The notes under the pieces were generated by a model. That model searched no databases. It saw nothing but the letters and a program-made list of their open reading frames with translations, and was not told where the DNA came from. DNA of 64,000 bases from an uncultured Spirochaetia bacterium (GTDB lineage: Bacteria; Desulfobacterota_D; UBA1144; Nemesobacterales; CSP1-2). The DNA is taken from contig CAZWVA010000002.1 in NCBI GenBank assembly GCA_964636885.1, forward strand, positions 22,050 through 86,049, read 5' to 3'. This document shows, piece after piece, positions 3,020-29,669 of this stretch; within the stretch, counting starts at the first letter, position 1, and each line of letters starts with the position of its first letter. The position numbers were made by a program, and so were the translations under genes.

Positions 3020-4213
3020 ATGGGATATCGGCTAAAACCTCCGGAACAGAACGGTAGTGTTTTAAAAAGATCCGCTCTTAGATTCGTTATTTTACTGGGT
3101 GTGGTGAGCCTCCTTGCGGATATGACGTATGAAGGAGCCCGCAGTATTACCGGTCCGTTTCTCGCTGTACTCGGAGCGAGCGCGACGGTGGTAGGCATTG
3201 TATCTGGGTTTGGGGAGTTAATCGGTTACGGTCTTCGCCTTGTGTCGGGATACATTAGCGACCGAACCGGGAAATATTGGACTATAACGATCTTAGGGTA
3301 CGTCGTTAATATGCTGGCGGTCCCTCTATTGGCACTGGCGGGACGCTGGGAAGTCGCCGCTTTTCTCATGATTACGGAGCGCCTAGGAAAAGGGATTCGC
3401 ACTCCCGCCCGTGATGCGATGCTTTCACATGCCACTAAGGAGATCGGGCGAGGTTGGGGATTTGGTTTACATGAGGCTCTGGATCAAATAGGCGCGGTTA
3501 TCGGTCCTTTCATCGTTGCCATAGTTCTATACTTTAGGGAAGGCTATAAGATCGGCTTCGGTATTCTGGCTGTACCTGCCCTCTTGGCCTTAAGTGTCCT
3601 TTTGGCGGCACGACTCCTTTATCCGAGTCCTCGCGATCTGGAACCGGTCTCGGTCAAACTGGAAGGGAAAGGGTTTCCACGGGTATTCTGGCTCTATCTG
3701 GTTGCCGTTGCTTTGGTTGCGGCAGGCTATGCCGATTTTCCGCTTATCGCCTATCATTTCAAAAAGGTCTCAATTGCTTCTGATGGGTGGATTCCAATCT
3801 TTTATGCTGTTGCCATGGGAGTCGATGCCCTCTCAGCGCTTCTCTTTGGACGTCTCTTTGATCGAGTAGGTATTTCTATTCTGATCGTTGTCTCTCTTCT
3901 CTCATCGCTTTTTGCCCCTTTTGTATTTTTAGGGGGCTTTGGTTCTGCCCTCTTAGGAATGGCCCTTTGGGGTATAGGAATGGGGGCACAGGAGTCCATT
4001 ATGAGGGCGGCTGTGGCGGGTATGGTTCCTGCAAATAGGCGTGGCGCTGCATATGGGATTTTTAATACGGGCTATGGGGTGTTTTGGTTTCTGGGAAGTG
4101 CATTAATGGGCGTTCTCTATGATAAATCTATTCCCTCCCTAATTGCATTCTCGGTAGTGATGCAACTTGCCTCTGTCCCATTGCTTTTTGTGATCAGGAA
4201 AGGGCTTAAGTGA
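3020..4213 (+). CDS. MFS transporter.
   Basis: Twelve-helix hydrophobic profile with MFS-like loops (GRLxDRxG-like 'SGYISDRTGKY'). An RBS-like 'aaaagggg' lies 7 nt before the ATG at 3020. The ORF track opens at 2993. Confidence 0.75.
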   Translation: MGYRLKPPEQNGSVLKRSALRFVILLGVVSLLADMTYEGARSITGPFLAVLGASATVVGIVSGFGELIGYGLRLVSGYISDRTGKYWTITILGYVVNMLAVPLLALAGRWEVAAFLMITERLGKGIRTPARDAMLSHATKEIGRGWGFGLHEALDQIGAVIGPFIVAIVLYFREGYKIGFGILAVPALLALSVLLAARLLYPSPRDLEPVSVKLEGKGFPRVFWLYLVAVALVAAGYADFPLIAYHFKKVSIASDGWIPIFYAVAMGVDALSALLFGRLFDRVGISILIVVSLLSSLFAPFVFLGGFGSALLGMALWGIGMGAQESIMRAAVAGMVPANRRGAAYGIFNTGYGVFWFLGSALMGVLYDKSIPSLIAFSVVMQLASVPLLFVIRKGLK

Positions 4214-4369
4214 TTTCTTGCGGATGATACATGTACCTGTTTATTCAGCATGATAAACAATCACTAATCAGCTAGAATTGGTATAATATGTTATATGAAA
4301 CTGTACTACAAGTTTTTACTCAATCAACAACTTTTTATGTGTGAATTTGATGCTTTGTTGTGGTGAAAG

Positions 4370-5050
4370 ATGCGTATTTTAATCGTCGAAGATGAGAAGA
4401 AGACCGCCGCTTACCTCAAAAAGGGACTCTCGGAAAACGGCTTTATCGTGGACGTCACTGACCAGGGTGAAGATGGGCTTCGCTGTGCACTCAGGTTTGA
4501 TTATGACCTTATTATCCTCGATGTAATGCTCCCTAAACAGGATGGATGGTCGATTATTACCGAACTACGACGGAATGGCAAGCAAACCCCGGTTCTTTTT
4601 CTGACGGCTCGCGACTCGGTTCAGGATAGAGTCAAAGGATTGGAACTGGGTGCCGACGATTATCTGATGAAACCCTTTGCATTCTCAGAATTACTCGCTC
4701 GAGTGCGTTCCATTCTTCGACGTGGCCCAGCCCGGCAATCCGACATACTCCGCATCGCAGATCTAGAAATTGACTTTCTGCGACATAAGGTGATGCGAGG
4801 CGGAAATCGTATTGACCTGACACCAAAGGAGTTCGCTCTACTGTCCCTCCTAGCTCGACGAAGAGGCGAGATTTTGTCCCGGACTCTGATTGCGGAACAG
4901 GTCTGGGACATAAACTTCGACAGCGATACCAATGTAGTAGATGTAGCTGTTCGCCGACTTCGTAGAAAAGTAGACGATCCTTTCACAAGAAAGCTGATTC
5001 ATACGGTTCATGGGGTAGGGTATGTCCTCGAAGAGCGCGAAGATAGTTAA
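4370..5050 (+). CDS. cusR: Heavy-metal response regulator, OmpR family (CusR/CopR-like).
   Basis: Receiver domain (MRILIVEDE...[10 protein letters not shown]) plus winged-helix DNA-binding domain (GYVLEE...). Close similarity pattern to CusR/CopR. Overlaps the downstream kinase gene by 29 nt. Confidence 0.85.
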
Positions 5051-6491
5051 GAACACAAAAGATGCCGGTCGTGCATTGATCTTTCCTTGGTTCTGGTCAA
5101 TCACGGGAAGGTTAACTCTTTTATACACTTTATCGGCTTTCGGAGTGCTTGTTTTAGCCACTGTATTTTTATACTGGGTGCTTGTAAGCAATTTGGAAAG
5201 AGAAGACAATGAGTTCCTTGCTGACAAGATTCGTATTCTACGTGGTATTTTGCAGAAACACCCCGATAATATAGAAGCCTTAAAGGAGGAGGTAAAATGG
5301 GAAGGAGCCGCTCTCGAGCCTCCCGAATACTATATAAGGATTCTAGATGAAGAGGGGCGTACTTTGATGGAGACGCCTGGCATGAGTAGTATCATTACTG
5401 CTTCGTTGTTTCGGGCTACAATCAGTGCTGCGAAAGTACCAAAGAGAGGGATAAAATGGAAGTCGCATGATGGCAAGTTATATCTCTTGAAGGCAGCATG
5501 GGTAGAGTTTGATTCCTCTAGCAGGGATCGACAACAGCTTCAAGTAGCCCTGGACGTATCCGGCGACGAAGTTTTTATCGCGGACTATCGTCGAAAATTG
5601 TTGTTTGTGCTTATTTTGGGGATTTTATTCTCCACCGGAGCAGGCGTCGTCACCGCCCGTAAAGGGATGCACCCCTTAGAAGAGATAACAGAGGTTGCTC
5701 AACGGATTACGGCAACGAAGCTTCATGAACGAATTAATCCGGCAAAATGGCCAAACGAATTGACTGCACTTGCTACTGCCTTCGATGGGATGCTGAGCCG
5801 TCTTGAAGACTCTTTTACTCAACTGTCCCAATTTTCATCGGACTTGGCCCACGAATTGCGTACACCAATCAATAATCTCATAGGTGAAGCCGAGGTTGCT
5901 CTGTCCAGAGCCAGAACGCCAGAAGAGTACAGACAGGTTCTTGAATCAAGCCTTGAGGAGTATGGAAGATTGTCACGTATGATTGACAATTTGCTTTTTT
6001 TAGCTCGTGCTGAGAATCCAGAAACCGGGATAGAACGATCGCTGTTTGACGCCAGCAAAGAGATTGAAGCAGTTCGGGAATTTTATGATGCTATAGCTGA
6101 GGAGCAAGGAGTCAAGGTCATCTGCCAGGGAAATACGCTATTAAATGCAGACCCGATACTATTTCGGCGAGCGTTAAGCAACCTGCTTTCCAATGCTCTC
6201 CAGTATGCCCCACACGGTGGGAGGATCACCATCTCTGTCAAGCAGTTGGATGATCAATCCGTCGAAGTAAGCGTGAGTGACACTGGCTCTGGTATCGCTC
6301 CAGAAGACCTTCCTAGAGTTTTTAACCGATTCTACAGGGCTGACCGCGCCCGCTCCCAATACCCCCAGGGAACAGGTCTTGGACTTGCCATTGTCAAGTC
6401 CATTATGGACCTCCACGGCGGCACAGTCACGATCCAGAGTGAACTTGCGAAAGGAACTACAGTCATCCTAAGGTTTCCACCGCCAGCCTAA
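5022..6491 (+). CDS. cusS: Heavy-metal sensor histidine kinase (CusS/CopS-like).
   Basis: Two transmembrane segments, a HAMP region, an H-box '[16 protein letters not shown]', and N/G1/G2 boxes (DTGSGI...GLGLAIV). Confidence 0.85.
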
Positions 6492-6631
6492 GCCATAAGC
6501 ATTACAAAATTGTAATCTTTCTGTCATGTTCCTGTAAGCACCAGTTTAGTATAATTGCACTTTTAGATACTTGATAAAAGAGGATCCTACTAGGTTAACA
6601 CGAACGAAATGGATAGATAAGTGAGGGACAA

Positions 6632-7003
6632 ATGGTCAAGAAAAAGATATTAGAGAAAACCATCAAAGAAGCTTTTATTTTAGAGACAGAGAAGATAATA
6701 CACTTGTTAGCTCAAGAAATATCATTTGTTCTCAAATCTCTGAGATACAGGTTTGGGAAAGTGGCCACTCCTGGAATCAGAGAGTTTTCTAAAAAAGATG
6801 TGCTTATGGTTATTCTGGATGAATTGAAAGAAGTTAAGTGGGAACTCGAATCTGTTAAGAAACGTCTAAGAGGAATTGAGAAAACTTTAGAAGAAAGAAA
6901 AATTCAAGTAGCGGATACCGAACTTGGAGTAAAGCTTAAGCAATCTCTTTGGGGAGAAGATGAAGATAATGAAGATGGTCTATTCCTTTTTGGAGAAGGA
7001 TGA
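6632..7003 (+). CDS. Hypothetical small coiled-coil protein.
   Basis: A 123-aa ORF in the gap between cusS and the PAP2 gene. Lysine/glutamate-rich and helical. No recognisable family. Confidence 0.4.
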   Translation: MVKKKILEKTIKEAFILETEKIIHLLAQEISFVLKSLRYRFGKVATPGIREFSKKDVLMVILDELKEVKWELESVKKRLRGIEKTLEERKIQVADTELGVKLKQSLWGEDEDNEDGLFLFGEG

Positions 7004-7078
7004 ACGTCCTGATTAGAACGTAAACACGATGTTTGAGCCCTGAAAGATTAAGAATGGAATTGGATTAGGTATAAAAAC

Positions 7079-7882
7079 GTGGATAGAGCCTTAGAAGTAA
7101 ATAGAAAACCTTGCATAGCCTTTGTAATTATCATTTTTCTATTTTCTACATTACCTGCCCAAGCAGAAAAGGTTGAGACTAAAAAGACCGAAGAGGAAAG
7201 TTTTCCTGGGTACGTTTTTAAAACCCTTCCTAAGAACCTGTTGCTTGGAACTAAGGAAAGCCTCTGGGGATGGAATCTTGCCCTCCTTGGAGTAGGAGCC
7301 GGGACTGCAATAACTCTTTCTCAAACCGATGCCGACGATGATATACAAGACGATGTCAAAGGTTCGATAGGAGATTTTGCAGATATAGGAAACATATCAG
7401 GGAATGGGCTCACTGTAGCTGGAATAGCAATCTCGACGTATATATTAGGGAGAGTAATCAAGGATGAAAAAGTTATTGTAACAGGTAAAGCGCTTATTGA
7501 GGCGGAGATTATCACAGCGGTTATGACAAGCACAATAAAGATTTCTACCGGAAGAGAAAGGCCGGATGGAAGCGGTGACCGCCTTACTTCTTCTTTTCCA
7601 TCCGGGCATGCCTCAGGTACCTTTGCCCTGGCCTCTACTGTTGATGCCATGTATGGTCATAAAATAGGAATCCCACTTTACGCATTTGCTGGGTTTGTAG
7701 CATTCTCACGTCTCTCGGATAACAAGCATTTTTTGTCAGATGTATTAATCGGAGCAGCTATAGGAACAGCAGTTGGAAGAGGAGTGACAAGTATTCATAA
7801 GAAGAAAGACAATTCTAGGCTTTCTATTCTTCCTTATTCGGATGGAAATAGTGCAGGGTTGATGCTTACCCTATCGTGGTAA
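7079..7882 (+). CDS. PAP2-family phosphatase (phosphatidic acid phosphatase type 2), secreted or membrane-anchored.
   Basis: PAP2 motifs KxxxxxxRP ('KISTGRERPDG'), PSGH ('SFPSGHAS') and SRxxxxxHxxxD ('SRLSDNKHFLSDV'). N-terminal signal peptide. GTG start. Confidence 0.8.
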   Translation: MDRALEVNRKPCIAFVIIIFLFSTLPAQAEKVETKKTEEESFPGYVFKTLPKNLLLGTKESLWGWNLALLGVGAGTAITLSQTDADDDIQDDVKGSIGDFADIGNISGNGLTVAGIAISTYILGRVIKDEKVIVTGKALIEAEIITAVMTSTIKISTGRERPDGSGDRLTSSFPSGHASGTFALASTVDAMYGHKIGIPLYAFAGFVAFSRLSDNKHFLSDVLIGAAIGTAVGRGVTSIHKKKDNSRLSILPYSDGNSAGLMLTLSW

Positions 7883-7939
7883 AGAATGTTCAGGCACAGG
7901 ATATTAAAATGCATAATTAGAGGGAGGAAAAAGGCTTGC

Positions 7940-9259
7940 ATGAGGAAAACGCTATTTGCTGCATTCGTCATAGTCATTACAGGAGCTTCAACTGTTTTTT
8001 TTGCTTCTGTCTCAGATGCTGAAGAACCAATTCAAAGTTTAACAATTGATCAGGCAGTGGATATAGCACTTCGGGAGAATCGTGATCTCAGAGCAGCACG
8101 GATGCAGGTAGAAGAAGCCAGGGGGAGGTTGACGCAGGCTGGAATTTTCCCCAATCCATCTCTGGGATCTGACTTTAGCTTCGACTCTATTTTTGCCAAT
8201 GAAGGTGAGCGAAGTTTTTCTGCGGGTATTTCTCAACCGCTTCCTTTAAGCGGTCGAATAGGTGCTCAAAAAAGAGTAGCCCGTGTGGATATTAAAAGAA
8301 CGTTTGCCAACCTTGCTGATATGGAGCGTAGATTAATAAGGGATGTCCATCGTGCTTTTATCGAGCTTCTGGCAATTGATGAACAAATTAAATTGCAAGA
8401 CACTCTGATTAGCCTTAATAGTGAGCTAACTAAAGCAATCGAGGAGGGTATCAAAGAAGGGTTGGCTTCAGAAAAAGACCTTAACGCTGTAGCTATATCC
8501 CTTCAGCAAGCTAGACAGGAAAAAGAGGTTCTTATAGCCCAGAGAAAAAGTAAGATTCTTGAATTAAATAAGCTTTTGGGTAAGCCGCCAACCCTCTCCT
8601 TTTCGCCACAGGGAAAGCTTGAATACGAAGCCGCAAAGGATTTAACCCAGTATAATGTTGAAAAGGCATTTGCACAAAGACCGGATTTAAGGTCTGCGGA
8701 ACTTGATATCGAACTTGCAAAGACGAGCATGGATCTAGCAAAGGCTCAACGCTTTGAGGATATAACAGCAGGGATTTTTTACGAGCGTGATCGTACTATT
8801 CTCGATATCCCTGAAGGTAAAATTCCAGATACAGGTCAGCTTATTGGTTTTAAGCTGACTATTCCCCTGCCTCTCTTTGACCGTAAGCAAGGTCTTATTG
8901 CCGAGGCGCGTGCCCGTGAGAGAAGAGCGGAAGAGAGCGTCCAGGCTTTAAAGTTACAGATCAGTCAGGAGGTAACCGACGCTCTAAACCGGGTAACTAC
9001 ATTTTCGGCTCTCCTAGAAACTTATAGATCAGGAATTTTAAAGACAGCAGAGGACAATGTAAAGTTGGTTGAAAATAGCTTTAAACAAGGGCTTGTTGGT
9101 ATTGTTGATGTCATTCAGTCTCGTCAGCAGTTTACTACTCTGAAATCATCTTATATTAATACAGTTCGTGATTATCAACTTGCACTAAATGACCTTCAAA
9201 TAGCTGTGGGGACTTACCCAAATACGATTACTCTTGATAATGAGGGCGAAAACAAATGA
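7940..9259 (+). CDS. cusC: Outer-membrane efflux protein, TolC family (CusC/CzcC-like).
   Basis: Signal peptide MRKTLFAAFVIVITGAS, then TolC-like coiled-coil repeats. First gene of a C-B-A RND arrangement. The ORF track opens earlier at 7886. Confidence 0.8.
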   Translation: MRKTLFAAFVIVITGASTVFFASVSDAEEPIQSLTIDQAVDIALRENRDLRAARMQVEEARGRLTQAGIFPNPSLGSDFSFDSIFANEGERSFSAGISQPLPLSGRIGAQKRVARVDIKRTFANLADMERRLIRDVHRAFIELLAIDEQIKLQDTLISLNSELTKAIEEGIKEGLASEKDLNAVAISLQQARQEKEVLIAQRKSKILELNKLLGKPPTLSFSPQGKLEYEAAKDLTQYNVEKAFAQRPDLRSAELDIELAKTSMDLAKAQRFEDITAGIFYERDRTILDIPEGKIPDTGQLIGFKLTIPLPLFDRKQGLIAEARARERRAEESVQALKLQISQEVTDALNRVTTFSALLETYRSGILKTAEDNVKLVENSFKQGLVGIVDVIQSRQQFTTLKSSYINTVRDYQLALNDLQIAVGTYPNTITLDNEGENK

Positions 9260-10281
9260 GAACAGAAGAAAAGAAACTTTTTCACCCATTTTTAAGTATT
9301 ATTTTCATGTTTCTTCTCACCATAACGGTTTTACAATTCCTTTACGGCTGTGGTGAAGAACATGCGAATGAAAAAGATGAGGAAGGGAAAGCAACCTCCC
9401 CTCCTTCTATTAGCAATAATGTCGGCGTAGAACTTTCAGAGATTGCTCAAAAAAGCATAGGTCTTAAAGTAGCTGAAGCTGAAATAAGGCAAATCGAAGG
9501 CGTGCTCTTAGTTAACGGCGTGGTAAAGCCCGAACCTAATAGAGTTGCAGAGGTAAGCACAAGAGCTGAGGGTCGCATTCAGGAACTTTATGCGAACCTA
9601 GGGGACCGGGTTAAAAAAGGGCAAAAACTCGCTGCCATGCTACCACGTCAAATCGGCAATCCACCGCCTCTTGTATCAATTACAGCGCCACTCTCAGGAA
9701 TTCTTGTAGAAAGAAATGTCCTACTTGGCAGCACAGTAGTACCTAATACGATTCTTTTTCGGATTGCAGATTTATCGAAGGTAATTGTTGAGGGCGATGT
9801 ATTTGAAAGCGATGTTTCTAAAGTAAGACTGGGTCAGGATGCGCGTATAAGGCTGGATGCCTATCCCGATAGGGTGTTCAACGGCACAGTTAGCTTTGTT
9901 GCCAGTCAGCTTGACCCTCAGAAACGTACGCTACACCTCTGGGTTTCAGTAGATAACAAAGAAGGATTACTGAAGCCTGAGCTTTTTGCCAGGGTTGCTC
10001 TTGTAATTAAGCCCGGCAGGGAGGTTCTAGCTATCCCCTTAGAGGCAATTATTGACGATGGTGCAGAGAAATTCGTATTCGTAAAGAACGGAAACCAATT
10101 CATTCGCCAGGATGTTGCTACTGGGGCAAGTGACGACCGCTATGTTGAAATTACAGATGGTCTTTATCCAGGAGACCAGGTAGTCACGGATGGTAATCGG
10201 GAAATTTACACAAAGTGGTTGCTTGGTGGTGGTAATTTAAGGTTGGAAGAAGAAGGAGAAGAGAAGGAGGAGAAAGATTAA
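9256..10281 (+). CDS. cusB: RND efflux periplasmic adaptor (membrane fusion protein, CusB/CzcB-like).
   Basis: N-terminal transmembrane anchor. Biotinyl/lipoyl-like and beta-barrel MFP signatures (ATGASDDRYVEITDGL). A 4-nt overlap with the TolC gene. Confidence 0.8.
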   Translation: MRTEEKKLFHPFLSIIFMFLLTITVLQFLYGCGEEHANEKDEEGKATSPPSISNNVGVELSEIAQKSIGLKVAEAEIRQIEGVLLVNGVVKPEPNRVAEVSTRAEGRIQELYANLGDRVKKGQKLAAMLPRQIGNPPPLVSITAPLSGILVERNVLLGSTVVPNTILFRIADLSKVIVEGDVFESDVSKVRLGQDARIRLDAYPDRVFNGTVSFVASQLDPQKRTLHLWVSVDNKEGLLKPELFARVALVIKPGREVLAIPLEAIIDDGAEKFVFVKNGNQFIRQDVATGASDDRYVEITDGLYPGDQVVTDGNREIYTKWLLGGGNLRLEEEGEEKEEKD

Positions 10282-10311
10282 GTAATCAGCATTTACGTTA
10301 AAGTTCCTTAG

Positions 10312-13300
10312 GTGATAGGATATCAACCGATGTTTAATACAATAATCAGGTGGTCGCTAAATAACAAACTGTTACTCGTAGTGGCTACTGCTATCTTTCT
10401 TGGCTCTTCTATATATCTTGTCACACAAATGCCTGTGGATGTTTTTCCAGAATTTGCTCCACCTCAGGTTGTAATCCAGACTGAAGCGCCTGGACTCTCG
10501 TCTGAAGATATAGAGGCGCTAATCACCTTTCCAATCGAGAGCGCGGTAAACGGTACACCCGGTGTTGATATAGTTCGTTCATCATCTTCTGTAGGCCTTT
10601 CGACTATAACTGTTGTCTTTAAGTGGGGAACCAATATCTATACTGCTCGTCAGCTTGTAAATGAGCGTATCCAATCGGTGCAAAGACGATTTCCTCTAGG
10701 AACAAAACCTCCTTTAATGCTTCCCGTTACATCCGCTGTAGGCCGGATGATTGAATACAGCCTAACAAGTGATACACTCTCACCGATGGAACTCCGTACA
10801 ATCTCAGACTGGCAAATACGTCCAAGGATACTTGCAATTGGGGGTGTGGCTTCTGTTGTTTCAATGGGAGGTGAAGTCAAGCAGTATCAAGTTCTCATTG
10901 ATCCGCTGAAGTTACGCTCCTACGACGTGACTCTAGCTCAGGTAAAAGAGGCGGTAGAGAAATCAAACGTAAATGTTCCGGGTGGATTTCTATATAGAGG
11001 GGGTGAAGAGTTTGTTGTCACAGGAGTTGGACGAATTACTACTCTCGATGATTTAAAGGAGACTGTAGTGGCTGTTCGTGACGGAATCCCTATTACCTTA
11101 AGCCAGTTGGCTGAAGTTAGGATAGGTCCTGAGATAAAACGTGGAGACGGTGCCTTTATGAATAAACCCGCTGTTATTGGTACGATTTCAAAAGCTTATG
11201 GTGCCGATACGTTGACTACAACATACAAGGTTGAAAAGACCCTTGAAGAGATTAAAGCAAGTCTCCCTAAAGGGGTTGATATGAATTATCATGTCTTCAG
11301 GCAAGCGGATTTCATCGAATCCGCCATCAAAAATTTGAAGAATACCCTCTGGCAGGGTGGAATCATAGTAACGGTGATTCTCTTTTTATTCCTTTATAAT
11401 TTTCGTGCCTCTTTTATAAGCCTGCTTGCTATGCCACTATCGCTTCTTGCAGGGTTAATGGTTTTAAAAGCCTTTGGTATCGGGATTAATGCAATGACGC
11501 TGGGAGGACTTGCCATTGCCATAGGTATTGTGGTTGATGATGCAATCATAGACGTGGAAAACGTCTTTAGAAGACTGCGCCTTAACCGTGCCTTACCCCA
11601 TCCCGAACCTGTGCTTAGCGTCGTCTTTAAAGGTTCAACTGAGATCCGAAACCCTATAGTCTACGCCACATTCATTATCATAATTGCCTTTTTCCCTGTG
11701 TTTTTACTCTCCGGTACTGAAGGAAGAATTCTTACCCCGCTTGGGATCGCATTCATAGCGAGTGTCCTTTGCTCATTGCTTGTAGCTGTAACAACGACAC
11801 CTGTGCTTTGTTATTTACTTCTTACCCGTAAACATGAGAGAGAACATGACAGAGGATTAGCTCAAGCAGGGGTACCATTACTGCGGCCGGAAGCCGCTTT
11901 CAGTAATCCGGGAAACCCCTCGGATACGCCGGGTAGTTCTAGTGGCGAAGGCTCTAGTTACAAGATGGAAAAAGAAGCTACTCTTGTACGCCTTCTTAAG
12001 AAAGTTTACGAACGCATTCTGAACCGCTCGCTAAAGCATTTTTACCTGATAATCGGTATTTCAGTCATTCTGCTCATCGGCGCTCTCGTAATGACTCCCT
12101 TTTTCGGACGCTCATTTCTGCCCGAGTTCCGTGAAGGTAACTTCATCATACGCATAACAATGCTGCCAGGTACCTCACTCGAGGAATCTATGCGACTCGG
12201 TTCATTGATTCAAAAGAATCTAACCGACAAATCAAAATATCCGGAGATTATTTCAGTTGCACAGCGTGCAGGACGTGCAGAACTCGATGAGGATGCGTTG
12301 CCACCTAATATCAGTGAGTTTGATCTCGCAATCAAGTATGGAAAGAGATCAGCCGATGATTTAATTAATGCAATCCGATCTGACCTAAAAGAAATTCCTG
12401 GGGTTGCAGTAGAAGTCAACCAATTTATCTCCGAGCGAATGAATGAAGTGCTTTCAGGTATCCGTGCAGATGTGGCTATTAAGATCTTTGGTCCTGATCT
12501 TATAAAATTAAGAATTATTGGTGAACAGGCAAGAGACATTGTAGAAACTGTAAAAGGGGTTAAGGACTTACAACTAGAACAGCAGATTAATGTTCCTCAG
12601 GTCGTAGTTAAATACGACCGTGAGAAAGCTGCAAGGTACGGACTTAATGTTGGGGATTTAGCAGGGATCACAGAAACCTCCTTAAACGGCACTGCGGTCT
12701 CACAAGTGCTGGAAGATCAGAAGACTTTTGACCTCTTTATTCGGCTTAATGAAGAATCGAGAAGTAACATTGAGGCTACCAAGAACATCCTCATTGATAC
12801 CCTAACAGGGGCAAAGATTCCTCTTCGTGAGGTCGCCGATATACATCTTGAAAATCGCCCATACACGATAAATCGTGAACAGGTTCAACGCCGTATAGTG
12901 GTTCAATTTAACGTTGCCGGTCGTGACCTAAATAGTGTGATTACTGAGGCTAAACAGAAGATTGAATCCCAAGTGAAATTGCCTTCTTCAGACTACTTTA
13001 TTGAATACGGCGGCCAGTTTGAAAGCCAGCAAAGGGCGTCAAAGATTCTTACAATCTTCGGTATTGTGGCAATACTCGGAATTTTTATGATGCTCTTTCA
13101 TGCTTTTGGAAACGCACGCGAATCAATAATGGTAATGGTTAACCTTCCTCTTGCCCTTATTGGTGGTGTATATGCTGTGTTTCTTACGGGAGGCGAACTA
13201 AGTGTGCCTTCACTAATCGGTTTTATAACCCTATTTGGAATTGCTACTAGAAATGGGATTATTCTTATAAGCCATTATAAGCAATTAAGAAAAGATGGAT

Positions 13301-13548
13301 TCTCTATTCGTGATACAGTTGTTCAGGGCTCACTTGACCGGCTAAATCCTATTTTAATAACGGCCTCTGTCGCCGCGCTTGGTCTTATTCCGCTTCTGCT
13401 TGGCGAGCCGACTGGTAAAGAAATTGAGAGACCACTAGCAGTTGTGCTTCTGGGAGGTCTCTTTACCTCAACTTTTTTGAATCTCGTTGTTATTCCAACT
13501 TTATATAACAAGATTGAAGCTTGGCAGGAGAATAAAAAAACAAATTAA
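10312..13548 (+). CDS. cusA: Heavy-metal efflux RND transporter, CusA/CzcA family.
   Basis: 1078 aa. Characteristic CusA N-terminus (IIRWSLNNKLLLV). Twelve transmembrane segments and two large periplasmic loops. A Met-rich stretch (AFMNKP...). The true start may be the internal Met at 10330. Confidence 0.9.
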   Translation: MIGYQPMFNTIIRWSLNNKLLLVVATAIFLGSSIYLVTQMPVDVFPEFAPPQVVIQTEAPGLSSEDIEALITFPIESAVNGTPGVDIVRSSSSVGLSTITVVFKWGTNIYTARQLVNERIQSVQRRFPLGTKPPLMLPVTSAVGRMIEYSLTSDTLSPMELRTISDWQIRPRILAIGGVASVVSMGGEVKQYQVLIDPLKLRSYDVTLAQVKEAVEKSNVNVPGGFLYRGGEEFVVTGVGRITTLDDLKETVVAVRDGIPITLSQLAEVRIGPEIKRGDGAFMNKPAVIGTISKAYGADTLTTTYKVEKTLEEIKASLPKGVDMNYHVFRQADFIESAIKNLKNTLWQGGIIVTVILFLFLYNFRASFISLLAMPLSLLAGLMVLKAFGIGINAMTLGGLAIAIGIVVDDAIIDVENVFRRLRLNRALPHPEPVLSVVFKGSTEIRNPIVYATFIIIIAFFPVFLLSGTEGRILTPLGIAFIASVLCSLLVAVTTTPVLCYLLLTRKHEREHDRGLAQAGVPLLRPEAAFSNPGNPSDTPGSSSGEGSSYKMEKEATLVRLLKKVYERILNRSLKHFYLIIGISVILLIGALVMTPFFGRSFLPEFREGNFIIRITMLPGTSLEESMRLGSLIQKNLTDKSKYPEIISVAQRAGRAELDEDALPPNISEFDLAIKYGKRSADDLINAIRSDLKEIPGVAVEVNQFISERMNEVLSGIRADVAIKIFGPDLIKLRIIGEQARDIVETVKGVKDLQLEQQINVPQVVVKYDREKAARYGLNVGDLAGITETSLNGTAVSQVLEDQKTFDLFIRLNEESRSNIEATKNILIDTLTGAKIPLREVADIHLENRPYTINREQVQRRIVVQFNVAGRDLNSVITEAKQKIESQVKLPSSDYFIEYGGQFESQQRASKILTIFGIVAILGIFMMLFHAFGNARESIMVMVNLPLALIGGVYAVFLTGGELSVPSLIGFITLFGIATRNGIILISHYKQLRKDGFSIRDTVVQGSLDRLNPILITASVAALGLIPLLLGEPTGKEIERPLAVVLLGGLFTSTFLNLVVIPTLYNKIEAWQENKKTN

Positions 13549-13609
13549 AGAAGGTTGAAGGGAAAATAATTAGTTTTAACCCTCCGATCCATATATGTAA
13601 CGCTCTTTC

Positions 13610-14536
13610 TCATCCAACAAAGAAGTTCAGCAACCACCCAGAACCTATAGCAAAGACAAACCAGCTTACTACATAAAGTAGCGTCGCCTTTTTACCAATG
13701 ATTTTCTGAGCCATAATTATGGTCGGTATGCATGTGCCTACTGAACCCAAGAGAAATGTAAAGGCCGGTCCAACACCTAATCCGGCTTTTAGAAGTGCAA
13801 ATGTTATGGGAACCTCTTCTCCTTCACATACATAGATGGGTATTCCTACTATGGCAGCCACTAAATACGCTGCAAATCCTGAGAAGATGATATACTTAGA
13901 GATTGAATCCTCAGGAATAATCGTAGTTAAAACCGATGCAACTAGCATCCCTATCAGGAAGTATTTGGAAAGTCCTCTTATTATTGATACCAAGTTCCAC
14001 CAAAAGCTTTGGTTCTTTTCTATGTAGCAAGAGTTAGACGATATAGGATTTTCTTTAACAGAAAGAATTTGAATAAATTTAGGGTTGGGGTCTGAAATAC
14101 CGAATCCAGAAACTCTAGATTTTTCGAGATAGTTTAAAATCACACCAAGAGCTATAATGCCGATAAATGGAAATACCAATCTTGCCACCGTGATTTTCCA
14201 GCCTAACATTCCATAAGTCATCGCTATCGTGATGGGACTTAGAAGGGGTGACATCATTATGAATGCTGTTACAGTTCCTAAATTAGTTCCTTGCCTTTTA
14301 AGTCCTTCTGCCATAGGCATTGTAGCACAGGCACAACCCGGAAGAACGGCGCCCAGAATACTTGCATTCATTACTGAGAAGTTACCTCGACTAAGATATT
14401 TGGAGATTGAATCGGACTTCAGGTAAGTTTGAAGAGCCGCACCTAAAGCAGCCCCGAGTAGAAAGTATGGAATAACCTCAAGAGTCAAAGAAAAGAATTC
14501 TTTTAAAATTTGAAGAGTGATATCCAAAAATGCCAC
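13610..14536 (-). CDS. DUF318 / ArsP-like permease (putative metalloid or organoarsenical efflux permease).
   Basis: Polytopic membrane protein with a conserved 'LPGCACATMPMAEGL' Cys-x-Cys motif typical of the DUF318/ArsP family. It sits immediately downstream of an ArsR regulator. Confidence 0.65.
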   Translation of the reverse strand: MAFLDITLQILKEFFSLTLEVIPYFLLGAALGAALQTYLKSDSISKYLSRGNFSVMNASILGAVLPGCACATMPMAEGLKRQGTNLGTVTAFIMMSPLLSPITIAMTYGMLGWKITVARLVFPFIGIIALGVILNYLEKSRVSGFGISDPNPKFIQILSVKENPISSNSCYIEKNQSFWWNLVSIIRGLSKYFLIGMLVASVLTTIIPEDSISKYIIFSGFAAYLVAAIVGIPIYVCEGEEVPITFALLKAGLGVGPAFTFLLGSVGTCIPTIIMAQKIIGKKATLLYVVSWFVFAIGSGWLLNFFVG

Positions 14537-14541
14537 AGCAT

Positions 14542-14853
14542 TTAGTACCTGGTACAGCGATATATTCCTTCTCCTACCTCAGCAAGTATTGCTTCAGCTT
14601 CCGCAAGGAGTTTTAACACTTTTTTATTAGCCACTTGGTAATAAACGTATCTTCCTTTTTTCTCCTTTTTTACAAGCCTGCAGTCTTCGAGACAAGCTAG
14701 GTGTGCCGAGACATTGGGTTGAGAAAGATTGGTAAGTTCGACAATTTCAGAAACGCATTTCGATCCATTCCTTAATGCCTCAAGGACTGCTAATCGAGAT
14801 GTATCAGCAAAACCCCGAAATAATTTGGCCTTGAGTATATTATTATCAGGCAT
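14542..14853 (-). CDS. arsR: ArsR/SmtB-family metalloregulatory transcriptional repressor.
   Basis: HTH region 'LAVLEALRNGSKCVSEIVELTNLSQPNVSAHLACLEDCRLV' with Cys residues in metal-sensing positions. Five nt upstream of the permease gene. Confidence 0.85.
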   Translation of the reverse strand: MPDNNILKAKLFRGFADTSRLAVLEALRNGSKCVSEIVELTNLSQPNVSAHLACLEDCRLVKKEKKGRYVYYQVANKKVLKLLAEAEAILAEVGEGIYRCTRY

Positions 14854-15036
14854 GAATAACCTCTTTTATGTGTAGGAGTTATTGTATAAATATATAACTA
14901 TATAATTATATTTTAGGATCTTTTTTATAACTTGTCAAATAACAACAGGCGAAAACCGTCGGCTTACAAAACGGTCCAAAAATTAAAAATTCTTTGGAGA
15001 GTGCATAATGCTATAAGCATTAGCATTTTAGTTTCA

Positions 15037-15486
15037 TCACTTAACCACCATAACCGTACATGGGGCAAGGCGGGTGAGGGTTTGTGAAGTGCTTCCCCAG
15101 ATTCTTCCAAACACCTTCGAATGTCCCATAAAACCTATCACAAGAAGATCAAACTTTCCTTCGTTAACGTAACTGACGATTTTCTCTACCTCGTGTCCTG
15201 CAACGACCTTCGTGTGTAGTGTAACGCCTTCTTTTGAAGCAAACTCTATGGCCTCTTGGTTTACTTTATCAAAGTAAGCGTTTCTTTCATGCTTAGCCTC
15301 AACGACTTCTCCTACCGTGGCCGCATAATGAGGCAGATCCTCTTCTACGGATATTGAATGAATCTCAGCATCAAAGCGTTTGGCAAGTTCAACCGCTACC
15401 CGCAGGGCTTTTTTCGCCCCTTCCGAGCCGTCATTTGCAACAAGGATTTTATTAAATCTAAACATTTTTACCCTCCCCTTGGTCAA
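15037..15486 (-). CDS. Universal stress protein (UspA family).
   Basis: UspA fold signatures (ILVANDGSEGAKKAL...LLVIGFMGHSKVFGRIWGSTSQ). Overlaps the upstream antiporter gene by 29 nt and is likely co-transcribed with it under the fluoride riboswitch. Confidence 0.8.
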   Translation of the reverse strand: MTKGRVKMFRFNKILVANDGSEGAKKALRVAVELAKRFDAEIHSISVEEDLPHYAATVGEVVEAKHERNAYFDKVNQEAIEFASKEGVTLHTKVVAGHEVEKIVSYVNEGKFDLLVIGFMGHSKVFGRIWGSTSQTLTRLAPCTVMVVK

Positions 15487-16648
15487 TCACACTAAGTACT
15501 GGAATTTCTTTGACAGCTTTGCCACTTACCTCGATCTCCTCACTCAAATTCGGCTGGAACCAACGCTGAGCGATAAGTGTAGGCACTATAGCCGTGAGAA
15601 TTACTACAGTAACAAGCACAGAAAACTGGCCGATGTTAATAAACCCCGCTGAGAGTCCGTACATCGAAGATATCGTTCCAAAAGTGAGTCCGGTACTCAT
15701 AAGTAGTGTGGTATAAGTAGCGTTCTTTGGAATGTACTTCTTTGCAAGTGGATATACTCCTATTACCTTTGCTCCTATTTTCACTCCGAATAATACCAGA
15801 AGGAGTCCAAAATTAGCATAGATCTCCTTGAGAGAAACGTTCATGCCGCCTTTTATGAAGAAAAAAGGCGTTATCATGGCAAAGGCGATTATTCTCAACT
15901 TTCTTTGAAGCTCTCTATTCGAGCGGAGCGTATTTGAAAGCACAAGTCCAAGAATAAACACCGGAAGCACAGCATGGCTTGCACCGAGTTTGGCAAGGTA
16001 CATGAACAGAAAAAGAAGAAAGAACAAGAACTTAATCTCAGGCTCAATCACTCTATTCCCATACCTCTTGAGAATCGGAGACATAACCTTTGGGGAGAGG
16101 AAAATTATCACAGCGGAGCCGAAAACAAAAACCAGAGTAAACCAGTTTCCCTCAGCAAAGAGCAGGCTAAGTGCCAATGCAGTGCTAAAGTCCGTAACGA
16201 AACAGGATGCCATGATCGTTTTTCCGATCTTTGTCTCGGTAAGTCCTGTTTCTACTAGGACAGCGTAAACCACAGCTAAAGACGTAGTAGAAAGAGCGGT
16301 TCCCGCGATCTGAGAGGCTTTAAAACCCCATCCTGCTATTCCGTAGCAGTAGGCAAAAGTCAAAAGAAACGGTGCAAGAAATGAAATCCCACCGATGAGA
16401 AGGCTCTCTTTAAACTTCTCTTTCATGAGCTCGGGATCCGTTTCCGCTCCCGCCAGGAATGTAAGCAGAATTCCTCCAAAACCAGCAAGGAAGTCAATCC
16501 AGGGTGTAGAGTGAAGACCGAGAAAGTTTCCACCTATAACACCCATGGCGATTTCAATAATAGATACAGATATTGCGGCTTCGACCGAGATAAGGCTTGC
16601 GAGAAAAATTAGAAGTCCCATGATTAAGGTGACGTATGTGTTATCCAT
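15458..16648 (-). CDS. Cation:proton antiporter (CPA1/CPA2 Na+/H+ exchanger family), fluoride-regulated.
   Basis: A 396-aa polytopic protein with Na+/H+ exchanger family motifs. A strong SD 'GGAGGAG' lies just upstream. A fluoride riboswitch sits in its 5' leader. CPA antiporters are known members of the fluoride regulon. Confidence 0.8.
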   Translation of the reverse strand: MDNTYVTLIMGLLIFLASLISVEAAISVSIIEIAMGVIGGNFLGLHSTPWIDFLAGFGGILLTFLAGAETDPELMKEKFKESLLIGGISFLAPFLLTFAYCYGIAGWGFKASQIAGTALSTTSLAVVYAVLVETGLTETKIGKTIMASCFVTDFSTALALSLLFAEGNWFTLVFVFGSAVIIFLSPKVMSPILKRYGNRVIEPEIKFLFFLLFLFMYLAKLGASHAVLPVFILGLVLSNTLRSNRELQRKLRIIAFAMITPFFFIKGGMNVSLKEIYANFGLLLVLFGVKIGAKVIGVYPLAKKYIPKNATYTTLLMSTGLTFGTISSMYGLSAGFINIGQFSVLVTVVILTAIVPTLIAQRWFQPNLSEEIEVSGKAVKEIPVLSVIDQGEGKNV

Positions 16649-16662
16649 CGATTCTCCTCCGC

Positions 16663-16684
16663 AACCGATATATAAAAAAGCCCC
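16663..16684 (-). terminator. Intrinsic terminator forming the expression platform of the fluoride riboswitch.
   Basis: The minus strand reads GUAGCCCUGAAGGGGCU followed by UUUUUUAU. The stem 5' side (GUAGCCC) could alternatively pair with the aptamer's 3' CCUAC. Confidence 0.6.
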
Positions 16685-16716
16685 TTCAGGGCTACAAACC
16701 CCTTCTTTAAAGGATT

Positions 16717-16773
16717 TGATCTTTAGGTAGGAGTCATCAGCTATCTCGGTCGAGATAGCAGTTAAAGGCAGAA
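16717..16773 (-). ncRNA. Fluoride riboswitch (crcB RNA motif) aptamer in the 5' leader of the antiporter-usp operon.
   Basis: The minus strand reads GGCAAUGGAGUUCUGCC-UUUAA-CUGCUAUCUCGACCGAGAUAGCUG-AUGACUCCUAC. It matches the consensus GGCGAUGGAGUUCGCC...stem-loop...CUAAUGACUCCUAC. P1 is GGCA/UGCC. The pseudoknot is GGAGU/ACUCC. There is a perfect P3 hairpin. Confidence 0.85.
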
Positions 16774-16906
16774 CTCCATTGCCTTTACTAAGAGGGCATT
16801 ACACATAAATATAAAACGAGCCGAAATATTGTCAACCGGTTCCCCTTTTGGAAGCGTCGTGATTGACAATGCTCGATTTCACTATAGAGTTATGTGTGAT
16901 ATTTTT

Positions 16907-17002
16907 GCAATGAAGGTAAATGGTTCTGCCTACATACACTGTTCCAACCGGAACGGTTAACGACTCCTACTTAATACGAAATTTCACGGTAGTGGTGTTT
17001 TT
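16907..17002 (+). ncRNA. Second, divergent fluoride-riboswitch-like element plus terminator in the crcB leader.
   Basis: GCAAUGAAGGUAAAUGGUUCUGCC...CUGUUCCAACCGGAACGG-UUAACGACUCCUAC. The 3' half matches the consensus (P3 hairpin plus UAAYGACUCCUAC). The 5' half is degenerate: GG-UU where the reference has GGAGU. Downstream, GUAGUGGUG-UUUUU can pair with ACUCCUAC as a terminator. Confidence 0.45.
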
Positions 17003-17037
17003 CGATTCCGGAGATGAAATGAAATCGGGGGAAACGA

Positions 17038-17424
17038 ATGATAAAGGTACTCTTGGTTGCGCTCGGCGGAGCTATGGGAGCCCTACTCAGATATGCGATG
17101 TCAGGCTTTACATCCAGGTACCTGGATGGAGTCTTTCCATGCGGGACATTGATGGTGAACCTTGTGGGCTGCTTCGTAATAGGTTTTCTGTGGCAACTAT
17201 TCGAGATGGTAGTTGTTTCACCAAATGTAAGGACTTTTATCCTTATAGGTATTCTAGGTGCCTTTACGACCTTTTCCACTTATGGGCTGGAGAGTTTCAA
17301 CCTTATTCGGGAGGGTGAGTTCGGGTTTGCCGTATTAAACGTTTTAATGAGTAACGTTGTGGGGATAATGCTGGTTTTTTGTGGTTTCGTCGTTTCAAGG
17401 TATTTTATCGGTATTTTCAGATAG
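17038..17424 (+). CDS. crcB: Fluoride ion channel CrcB/Fluc.
   Basis: 128 aa and four transmembrane segments. Conserved motifs GAMGALLRY and GxxxxFTTFSTY (GILGAFTTFSTYGLE). Confidence 0.9.
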   Translation: MIKVLLVALGGAMGALLRYAMSGFTSRYLDGVFPCGTLMVNLVGCFVIGFLWQLFEMVVVSPNVRTFILIGILGAFTTFSTYGLESFNLIREGEFGFAVLNVLMSNVVGIMLVFCGFVVSRYFIGIFR

Positions 17425-17435
17425 GGGTCGATTAG

Positions 17436-17780
17436 ATGACTTTACCCGGAGAAGGACTACTACTTAGGATATTCATAGGGGAAACCGACAGTTATAAAGG
17501 AAAGGCGCTTTATGAACAGATCGTCCTTAAGGCAAGGGAGCTAAACCTCGCCGGGGCGACGGTTATTCGTGGGATAATGGGCTTTGGCGCCGATAGTCGT
17601 ATACATACGGCTAAACTCCTTCGACTCTCTGAGGACTTACCCGTCGTTATAGAGCTGGTGGATACGGAGGAAAACCTGAACAAGATACTTCCCTTTCTAG
17701 ATGAGACGGTAAAAGAGGGACTTGTCACGATGGAAAAGGTGAGAATCATTAAATACGGATACGCCAGTAAAAATAAATAA
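17436..17780 (+). CDS. DUF190-domain protein (commonly co-encoded with crcB).
   Basis: A 114-aa protein with a nitrogen-regulatory-PII-like fold signature (LLRIFIGETD...GATVIRGIMGFG). An 11-nt gap after crcB. Confidence 0.75.
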   Translation: MTLPGEGLLLRIFIGETDSYKGKALYEQIVLKARELNLAGATVIRGIMGFGADSRIHTAKLLRLSEDLPVVIELVDTEENLNKILPFLDETVKEGLVTMEKVRIIKYGYASKNK

Positions 17781-21871: not shown

Positions 21872-21945
21872 TGGCTGGGGCGGGTGGATTCGAACCACCA
21901 TAGCGGGCTCCAAAGGCCCGAGTCCTGCCATTAGACGACGCCCCA
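21872..21945 (-). tRNA. tRNA-Gln (anticodon UUG).
   Basis: Minus strand reads UGGGGCG-UC-GUCUAAUGGCAGGAC-UCGGGC-CUUUGGA-GCCCG-CUAUG-GUGGUUCGAAUCCACC-CGCCCCA-G-CCA. A 7-bp acceptor stem, a T-loop GGUUCGAAUCC, anticodon loop CUUUGGA, and an encoded CCA. Confidence 0.85.
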
Positions 21946-29593: not shown

Positions 29594-29669
29594 TGGTCGG
29601 GGTGACCGGACTCGAACCGGTGACCCCCGGCCCCCCATGCCGGTGCGCTACCAACTGCGCCACACCCCG
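29594..29669 (-). tRNA. tRNA-Pro (anticodon GGG).
   Basis: Minus strand reads CGGGGUG-UG-GCGCAGUUGGUAGCGC-A-CCGGC-AUGGGGG-GCCGG-GGGUC-ACCGGUUCGAGUCCGGU-CACCCCG-A-CCA. Cloverleaf with anticodon GGG and encoded CCA. Confidence 0.85.

Follow-up and report, generated by a model that had tools for sequence, protein, structure and literature searches.

The window analysed here is the whole 64,000-nt stretch of contig CAZWVA010000002.1 from an uncultured Spirochaetia bacterium, and it contains a pair of fluoride riboswitch-like elements, one on each strand, in the 389-nt intergenic region 16649–17037 between two divergent operons. The minus-strand operon encodes a cation:proton antiporter (CPA) and a universal stress protein (Usp), and the plus-strand operon encodes the fluoride channel CrcB and a DUF190 protein. 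Comparison of the two elements with their relatives indicates that the pair probably consists of a working fluoride riboswitch on the CPA–usp operon and a non-sensing relic before crcB. The plus-strand unit would be the relic of a CPA-type unit placed before crcB–DUF190, in which the loss of pseudoknot nucleotides and the mutation of U41 and of an A in the J1/3 segment would have abolished canonical sensing. Its tail-complementary terminator would also be weakened, and fluoride most likely has no influence on the transcription of crcB, which would be either constitutive or weakly attenuated. Within the clade, a sister lineage would have dropped this leader together with crcB, and more distant relatives would have dropped the leader, crcB and most of DUF190, while the surviving CrcB would be evolving faster than its neighbour DUF190, with the module under relaxed constraint.

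Fluoride riboswitch of the CPA–usp operon

The minus-strand leader has the following elements.

16721–16792, minus strand: canonical fluoride riboswitch aptamer, with P1 GGCA/UGCC, loop L1 AUGGAGUUC, an 8-bp P3 and tail GACUCCUAC
16673–16693, minus strand: intrinsic terminator of the CPA leader, with hairpin AGCCCUGAAGGGGCU at 16693–16679 and a U6 run
16654–16660, minus strand: Shine-Dalgarno (SD) sequence GGAGGAG of the CPA gene, complementary to CUCC of the aptamer tail

The Rfam model RF01734, which has a gathering score of 34 bits, matches the minus-strand aptamer over the full model at 57.2 bits (E = 3e-13 in the whole window), and a clade covariance model named R1, built from 24 CPA-upstream riboswitches, gives it 77.7 bits. 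GGAGUU of L1 and GACUCC of the tail form a 6-bp pseudoknot duplex of −8.4 kcal/mol. The terminator lies 25 nt downstream and is the sole terminator call within 16400–17300; its hairpin has a free energy of −7.8 kcal/mol and is paired with a probability of 0.81–0.93 in the ensemble. A preliminary description of this DNA had proposed a near-textbook fluoride aptamer with a terminator hairpin and U-tract ahead of an antiporter and usp, to be checked by an RF01734 search. The score well above the cut-off, the hairpin with its U6 run and the Na_H_Exchanger and Usp matches in Pfam bear out each part of this proposal, and the minus-strand element is a canonical fluoride riboswitch in aptamer identity.

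A two-state path, in which the tail is either free or locked, would be the most economical reading of this leader. Without fluoride, the tail ACUCC would be free and able to pair with the downstream AAGGGG segment and with GGAGG of the SD sequence, the GCCCU/GGGGC terminator hairpin with its U6 run would form, the SD sequence would be occluded and expression would be low. With fluoride, the tail would be held in the L1 pseudoknot around the Mg–F cluster, the terminator would be bypassed and the ribosome-binding site would be freed, allowing the antiporter and Usp to be produced. In an alifold consensus of seven orthologous leaders, CUCC of the tail pairs with GGAG of the SD sequence in six to seven of the seven, and the SD sequence is paired with a probability of 0.84 in the fold of the window leader. 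The AAGGGG segment can pair with the tail; when it does not, it is a competitor for the terminator's 5′ strand. Equilibrium folding of the full leader and of orthologous leaders gave no single switching pathway.

RF01734 was found just upstream of the antiporter gene in 19 of 20 homologous CPA loci scanned with Rfam, the exception having only 109 nt of upstream sequence. R1 gave 102 hits in 90 sources, among about 180 loci, all on the strand of the CPA gene, and CPA orthologues at 83–98% identity have the riboswitch upstream in every case, with covariation in P3 among the orthologues of close relatives. The names that NCBI gives to close homologues of the antiporter put the lineage in Thermodesulfobacteriota. 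Since RF01734 lies upstream of nearly all homologous CPA loci examined, and on the CPA strand, the fluoride switch is native to the CPA2 antiporter–usp operon.

The columns of the family were compared over 80 distinct sequences, namely the plus-strand element and 79 others. The P1, P3 and pseudoknot cells of these sequences are 95.3% paired, with double changes in 13 of 17 pairs; none of 500 shuffles reached the observed values, and slid controls were only 32–62% paired. The pseudoknot helix has 99.8% of its cells paired across the family, with covariation. R1 scores range from 34 to 78 bits for clear members and from 22 to 25 bits for four intact but divergent members (L164, L174, L143 and L067), in which the pseudoknot is kept by covariation, as in GAAGU/ACUUC and GGAGC/GCUCC.

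Two of these four (L164:1150–1235 and L174:1521–1613) represent a divergent intact aptamer subtype with L1 GUGAAGUUA, junction CCAAUAACUUC, an insert of 40–50 nt in P3 and a perfect tail-complementary terminator (GGUAGAAGUUUUUUU in L164). They score just 23–24 bits with R1, and similar copies may be missed at standard thresholds. Two to three same-strand fluoride riboswitches lie within 2–3 kb at L107, L116, L124, L136, L137, L140, L148, L156, L158, L163, L164, L165 and L130–L133; these loci are multi-operon fluoride islands, none of which has a divergent pair like that of the window.

Lesions of the element upstream of crcB

The plus-strand leader has the following elements.

16906–16976, plus strand: degenerate fluoride aptamer, upstream of crcB
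16915–16918 and 16927–16930, plus strand: P1, GGUA/UGCC
16919–16926, plus strand: L1 AAUGGUUC, without the GGAGU pseudoknot strand
16931–16937, plus strand: J1/3
16938–16945 and 16950–16957, plus strand: P3, an 8-bp hairpin
16958–16962 and 16963–16970, plus strand: junction UAACG and tail ACUCC-UAC; 16957–16970 reads UUAACGACUCCUAC
16989–17002, plus strand: weak terminator-like 3′ strand GUAGUGGU with GU5 (GUAGUGGUG-U5), tail-complementary with one C–U mismatch

The preliminary description had seen here the 3′ half of the motif, consisting of P3 and the tail, and an L1 without GGAGU, and the sequence agrees with it. The column-by-column comparison identifies four states of the plus-strand element that are unseen in the 79 other distinct members. 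First, the two central nucleotides of the six in the pseudoknot 5′ strand (columns 18–19) are deleted, a state unique among the 80 sequences. Second, an A is inserted in L1 (column 14). Third, an A of the J1/3 "AA" is changed to U (U16934). Fourth, U41, which is present in all 79 other members, is replaced by C (C16961). A further departure from the consensus, G39-to-A, is shared with seven other members and is tolerated. The invariant pocket nucleotides of the family are AUGG-G-U in L1, AA in J1/3 and U-G/A-A-U-G/A in the junction. L1 differs from the intact state AAUGGAGUUC, and the configuration of the element is AAUGGUUC / UUAACGACUCC.

The best duplex between L1 and the tail of the plus-strand element is out of register and has a free energy of −1.6 kcal/mol, the weakest of the 102 R1 hits, for which the median is −8.35 kcal/mol and the 5th–95th percentile range is −10.3 to −5.6 kcal/mol. 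A substitute pseudoknot partner for the tail was considered and rejected, the best candidate in the leader giving 3 bp and −3.5 kcal/mol. Since the pseudoknot is the core of the Mg–F pocket of the fluoride aptamer (PMC10687018) and the plus-strand element lacks it, canonical fluoride sensing by this element is very unlikely.

The terminator proposed for this leader in the preliminary description is present as far as its tail-complementary strand and U5 run are concerned, but it is weak. The forced hairpin ACUCCUAC/GUAGUGGU with U5 has seven pairs, a C–U mismatch, an 18-nt loop and a free energy of −3.3 kcal/mol; it was not detected by the terminator scan of 16400–17300, and it is present in one minimum free energy (MFE) fold of the full leader and absent from the other.

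Homology and origin of the plus-strand unit

RF01734 gives the plus-strand element 12.5 bits (E = 0.84 in a 421-nt search), 21 bits under the gathering score, in a fragmentary alignment that skips most of L1 and P3. With R1 the alignment covers the full element and scores 27.0 bits (E = 4e-7 for 2 kb of sequence, about 1e-4 for 0.54 Mb), which exceeds chance and falls short of the 34–78 bits of clear members. P1 and P3 are seen in both the MFE and centroid folds and are also the helices aligned by the model. The element keeps P1, P3 and the tail GACUCCUAC, and the letters of the A40–U48 linchpin and of A10–U38 are consensus (columns 115 A, 123 U, 15 A and 113 U). Because of the full-length R1 match and the colinearity with the CPA-type unit described below, the plus-strand element is a true homologue of the fluoride riboswitch, although the Rfam search suggested in the preliminary description falls below the cut-off on this strand and it is R1 that reveals the homology.

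The two leaders have promoter-like sites that point outward, away from each other.

16808–16835, minus strand: promoter-like site of the CPA–usp leader, TTGACA-16-TATATT, 11 of 12 consensus positions
16863–16890, plus strand: promoter-like site of the crcB leader, TTGACA-16-TAGAGT, 10 of 12 consensus positions

The −35 box and the spacing of the CPA site are kept in relatives. The plus-strand unit is colinear with CPA-type units from the −35 box to the tail, with TTGACA at an equal offset from P1, and it carries TTCTGCC, a clade-specific signature in which A–U closes a 9-nt loop, and the tail CUCCUAC. Its P3, ACUGUUCC-AACC-GGAACGGU, is close to the P3 of L098 and L181. Alignment scores of the unit are 113–122 against the CPA-type units of relatives, 94 against the window's own minus-strand copy and 83–86 against the crcB-type leaders of L086 and L087, in which the promoter is 12 nt nearer to P1 and the tail is CUCCUCG. 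An orthologous relationship with the canonical crcB-type riboswitch of L086 and L087 was rejected on the basis of this spacing and of the signature positions. The inverted-repeat finder did not report paralogous arms, the arms being too diverged, and their colinearity is shown by alignment. The plus-strand unit is therefore an inverted paralogue, produced by duplication, of the CPA promoter–riboswitch unit. The preliminary description had left open whether this copy is a decaying duplicate or a variant aptamer; the CPA-type hallmarks, the lesions and the lack of conservation favour the duplicate and disfavour the variant.

Since the P3 of the plus-strand unit is nearer to the CPA-type P3 of relatives than to the derived P3 of the window's own minus-strand copy, the duplication is not very recent. 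The tail-complementary terminator of the unit is unlike the CPA-type platform, and this difference in terminator design suggests that the copy once operated as an independent switch.

An 8-nt inverted repeat in window 16828–16870 is made up of the two −35 boxes (ATTGTCAA ... TTGACAAT, 27 nt apart); it is attributed to the inverted duplication of the unit. The canonical crcB-riboswitch platform of L086:140–240 and L087:177–278 (AAUCCUUAAAAUAAGGGCUGUUAGCC), relatives with CrcB 70–71% identical, has no U-run and lies about 100 nt from the start codon; it resembles the CPA-leader platform at window 16649–16720, indicating that the CPA-type and crcB-type leaders of the clade share ancestry beyond the aptamer.

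Probable loss of the crcB module in relatives

The genes of the two operons and the segment that is missing from the closest relatives are as follows.

15458–16648, minus strand: CPA2/KefB-type cation:proton antiporter (Pfam Na_H_Exchanger, 5e-37)
15037–15486, minus strand: usp, universal stress protein (Pfam Usp, 1e-26), forming an operon with the antiporter gene (15037–16648)
17038–17424, plus strand: crcB, Fluc fluoride channel (PF02537; Pfam CRCB, 4e-28; 98.2 bits against a cut-off of 32.9)
17436–17780, plus strand: DUF190 gene, 3′ of crcB (Pfam DUF190, 2e-40)
16884–17429, plus strand: 546-nt segment absent from L177 and L178 (blastn break; flanks 97–98% identical)

The intergenic sequence is unchanged across five independent contigs or assemblies, which excludes an assembly error. 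L177 and L178, in which CPA and DUF190 are each 98% identical to those of the window, have an intact DUF190 gene and lack the 546-nt segment, which begins within the −10 box, takes in the relic leader and the whole of crcB, and ends just past the crcB stop codon. Antiporter relatives at 86–91% identity have CPA–usp divergent from rpiB–asd–bPH3–dapA, without crcB. In L097:2727–2828 and L181:3229–3315, C-terminal stumps of DUF190 (residues ~81–114; ~28–34 aa, 71–79% identical) abut the CPA promoter and are followed by rpiB–asd; these stumps are remnants of a deleted crcB–DUF190 operon. No DUF190 remnant was found in L098 and L182. The CrcB relatives L091–L095 have the gene order crcB–DUF190–rpiB–asd–bPH3–dapA; L091–L096, with CrcB 63–67% identical, have no riboswitch and are usable for gene order and as outgroups. 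No plus-strand leader was found in L177 and L178 (98%), L180–L183 (90–91%) or L097–L100 (86–88%), and no second fluoride-like element was found in the intergenic regions of relatives, even at E ≤ 5.

The parsimonious reading of these arrangements would be an ancestral order CPA–usp | crcB–DUF190–rpiB from which the crcB module was deleted at least twice, and the window would hold the only surviving copy of the module at this locus among the relatives compared. The preliminary description had attached importance to the position of crcB behind the weaker copy; this is true in the window genome, and its weight is reduced by the dispensability of crcB at the locus in the sister lineages.

A scan of 185k species genomes with CrcB gave best matches of 41–64% identity, mostly without a riboswitch: Rfam placed one at 2 of 20 of these loci, and R1 at 2 of 80, with one further weak hit. 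These matches did not serve as orthologues. The nearest homologues of the window CrcB are 70–71% identical, and no closer one was found among 5.8 billion clusters, whereas DUF190 on the same contigs is ~85–90% identical. Tajima relative-rate tests of CrcB give an excess of unique changes on the window branch (19:7, 18:5 and 16:7; p = 0.019, 0.007 and 0.06), and the test of DUF190 is symmetric.

Among the lineage-specific substitutions behind this acceleration is FPCGTL at window 17071–17082 (CrcB residues ~33–36), where seven of seven relatives compared have LPWGTL. E. coli CrcB carries L at the W position of this motif, and the substitution is probably tolerated.

Several further observations were made at the locus and in its relatives. 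In L177:2740–3000, at the junction corresponding to window 16884/17430, DUF190 begins ~26 nt past the plus-strand −35 box (TTGACAATGATCGATTTCACTGAAGTGATTAGATG), with no good −10 box or leader left before it; in the window, the segment missing there has a short TCGATT repeat at its flanks. The ~10.8 kb downstream of usp (window 4187–15031), which includes arsR (14542–14853), an ArsP-type permease gene (13610–14536) and a 1078-aa open reading frame (ORF; 10312–13548), is absent from L177 and L097–L100, where usp adjoins sequence matching position ~4200 downward. In L182 and L183 arsR–arsP follow usp, so that 4187–15031 is a variable region, not a simple insertion. The rpiB gene is split into ORFs of 128 aa and 43 aa in L180 (2673–3187) and is a single 172-aa ORF in the near-identical L181 (2669–3187), a probable frameshift or sequencing error in L180. 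Two minus-strand tRNA genes at window 21875–21945 and 29597–29669 (Rfam, 59.5 and 62.1 bits) are unrelated to the riboswitches.

Weighing of the probable relic against alternative explanations

Several observations weigh against reading the element as a non-sensing relic and its module as one under relaxed constraint. Both helices of the plus-strand element, P1 and P3, are fully paired, with only two G–U wobbles and with compensatory differences from the paralogues, and the 9-nt tail and the A40/U48 linchpin letters are intact. Such order in stems, tail and linchpin is more than long neutral decay leaves, and so either the inactivation was recent or the hairpins are still selected. Folding leaves termination, SD occlusion and read-through of the plus-strand leader undistinguished. 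The crcB ORF is intact, the core Fluc motifs GGxxGAxxRY, GTLxVN and GxFTTFSTY are all present in the alignment and the promoter is good, suggesting that the gene is probably still in use. The rate asymmetry of CrcB disappears with the most distant outgroup (9:11), and the tests with different outgroups are not independent of one another. Parsimony is the basis for reading the 546-nt indel as a deletion in L177 and not an insertion in the window. Finally, the five contigs with the identical intergenic region also encode identical CrcB and thus give no population evidence on constraint.

The intact stems raise the possibility that the plus-strand element is a non-sensing but selected structured leader, in which P1 and P3 would serve as 5′ stabilising hairpins and the tail, terminator and SD sequence as a constitutive attenuator, giving a low, fixed expression of crcB–DUF190. 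The absence of mismatches in P1 (4–8 bp) and P3 (8 bp) despite many changes in unpaired regions, the compensatory differences, the full conservation of the tail GACUCCUAC and its complementarity both to GUAGUGGU and to the GGAG/GGGG close to the start codon would all be expected of such a leader, as would the intact ORF and promoter of crcB. The chance of zero broken pairs under neutral decay is, at a rough estimate, ~0.06; because this is only marginally improbable, recent inactivation explains the intact stems equally well. The leader is conserved in no relative, the closest one having deleted it together with crcB, and its fold is no stabler than those of shuffled sequences (z = −0.96). A selected structured leader is therefore considered unlikely.

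The boundaries of the indel coincide exactly with the leader and crcB, and this coincidence, together with the contrast between CrcB and DUF190 in identity and the lack of any closer CrcB in the clusters searched, would also fit an insertion of 16884–17429 on the branch of the window, such as one through recombination with a divergent donor, the leader having already diverged and the divergence of CrcB being foreign. Against this, crcB–DUF190 is a standard gene pair with an 11–12 nt spacer in the window and in relatives, and L097 and L181, with their DUF190 stumps beside the CPA promoter, show that an ancestral crcB–DUF190 operon was removed by deletion. Moreover, the leader bears the clade's own CPA-type hallmarks, contrary to the expectation for a distant donor, and with L091, L093 and L095 as outgroups the extra changes map to the window branch. 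An insertion is thus distinctly unlikely.

A functional variant aptamer, either a sensor with a reduced pseudoknot or one with an altered ligand, that regulates crcB through the GUAGUGGUG-U5 terminator is very improbable. In its favour, the element preserves the general architecture together with the tail, the linchpin letters and a terminator complementary to the tail, the changes cluster in the strands of the ligand pocket while the helices are kept, as in known variant riboswitch classes, and the downstream gene encodes a fluoride channel. The pseudoknot that forms the core of the fluoride pocket (PMC10687018) cannot form, however, and the invariant U41 is changed. The element is a singleton among the 102 hits in about 180 loci, is conserved in no relative and was discarded by the sister lineage, and its terminator is too weak for a clear switch. 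If true, the variant explanation would describe a variant class descended from the fluoride riboswitch, the first of its kind, still under selection with rewritten pocket strands.

A chance match to a short motif, for which the low Rfam score and the fragmentary local alignment might be taken to speak, is effectively excluded: R1 matches the element over its full length, the order and spacing between −35 box and tail are exactly colinear with those of the CPA-type unit, and the element follows a good promoter and directly precedes crcB.

Comparison with known fluoride-responsive systems

A relic in front of crcB would make the pair a clear natural case of riboswitch decay in progress, its lesions falling on the pseudoknot that defines the family and on an invariant nucleotide of the junction, and the sister genomes would hold later stages of the loss, in which sensor and channel and then DUF190 are deleted. 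A stepwise loss in progress within the clade (sensor, then channel, then DUF190), with the riboswitch-controlled CPA2–Usp operon retained, appears more likely than a variant class. The clade hints at a stronger conservation of the antiporter–Usp response than of the Fluc gene at this locus, and, if the stepwise loss is true, fluoride defence in these Thermodesulfobacteriota would have this response, and not Fluc export at the locus, as its conserved core. The relic would be a well-documented case of riboswitch decay with intermediate stages in relatives, not a new mechanism. It also carries a warning for annotation, as a riboswitch-like leader before crcB does not by itself establish regulation by fluoride, and the locus offers a natural set of mutants for testing which aptamer features are indispensable.

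Known variant riboswitch classes, such as the ykkC subtypes and the guanine-class variants, keep the scaffold and change pocket nucleotides (reviewed in PMC7266159 and PMC5473149). The plus-strand element likewise keeps its helices and has its changes in the single-stranded pocket strands. In contrast to those classes, which are conserved in many genomes and keep the tertiary architecture, it is a singleton that has lost the tertiary helix and has been deleted in the sister lineage.

The minus-strand copy matches the RF01734 (crcB motif) riboswitches, such as those of Bacillus cereus crcB and Thermotoga petrophila (4ENC), in score, P1, P3, the 6-bp pseudoknot, the invariant L1 and junction nucleotides and the presence of a downstream intrinsic terminator. 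It differs from the B. cereus crcB riboswitch in that its terminator does not directly overlap the tail, for which the AAGGGG segment and the SD sequence would be the partners. The plus-strand copy shares with RF01734 the P1 and P3 helices, the tail, the A40/U48 letters and the tail-complementary design of the terminator, but it is without the pseudoknot 5′ strand and U41.

Na+/H+ antiporters are reported to rank second in frequency among the gene classes that fluoride riboswitches precede (PMC11139923, summarising Baker et al. 2012), and uspA is induced 120-fold by fluoride in the riboswitch operon ppaC–uspA–eno–gpmA–crcB of Enterobacter cloacae FRM (PMC5533749). Since antiporters and usp are documented cargo, the genes downstream of the minus-strand element lie within the known fluoride regulon, and the element and its cargo are known biology with nothing new in kind. 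Like known fluoride-controlled antiporter and usp operons, among them that of E. cloacae FRM, the window has genes of these kinds, a CPA antiporter gene and usp, behind a fluoride riboswitch; unlike them, its antiporter–usp genes form an operon of their own, divergent from crcB, which keeps the switch while crcB loses it in the clade. About 15% of Flucs are riboswitch-controlled and about 85% are not (PMC11139923). If the relic is inert, the window crcB would join this majority, as the crcB genes of L091–L096, also without a riboswitch, do; it differs from other riboswitch-less Fluc genes in that it visibly descends from a riboswitch-controlled state, the remains of which are still present.

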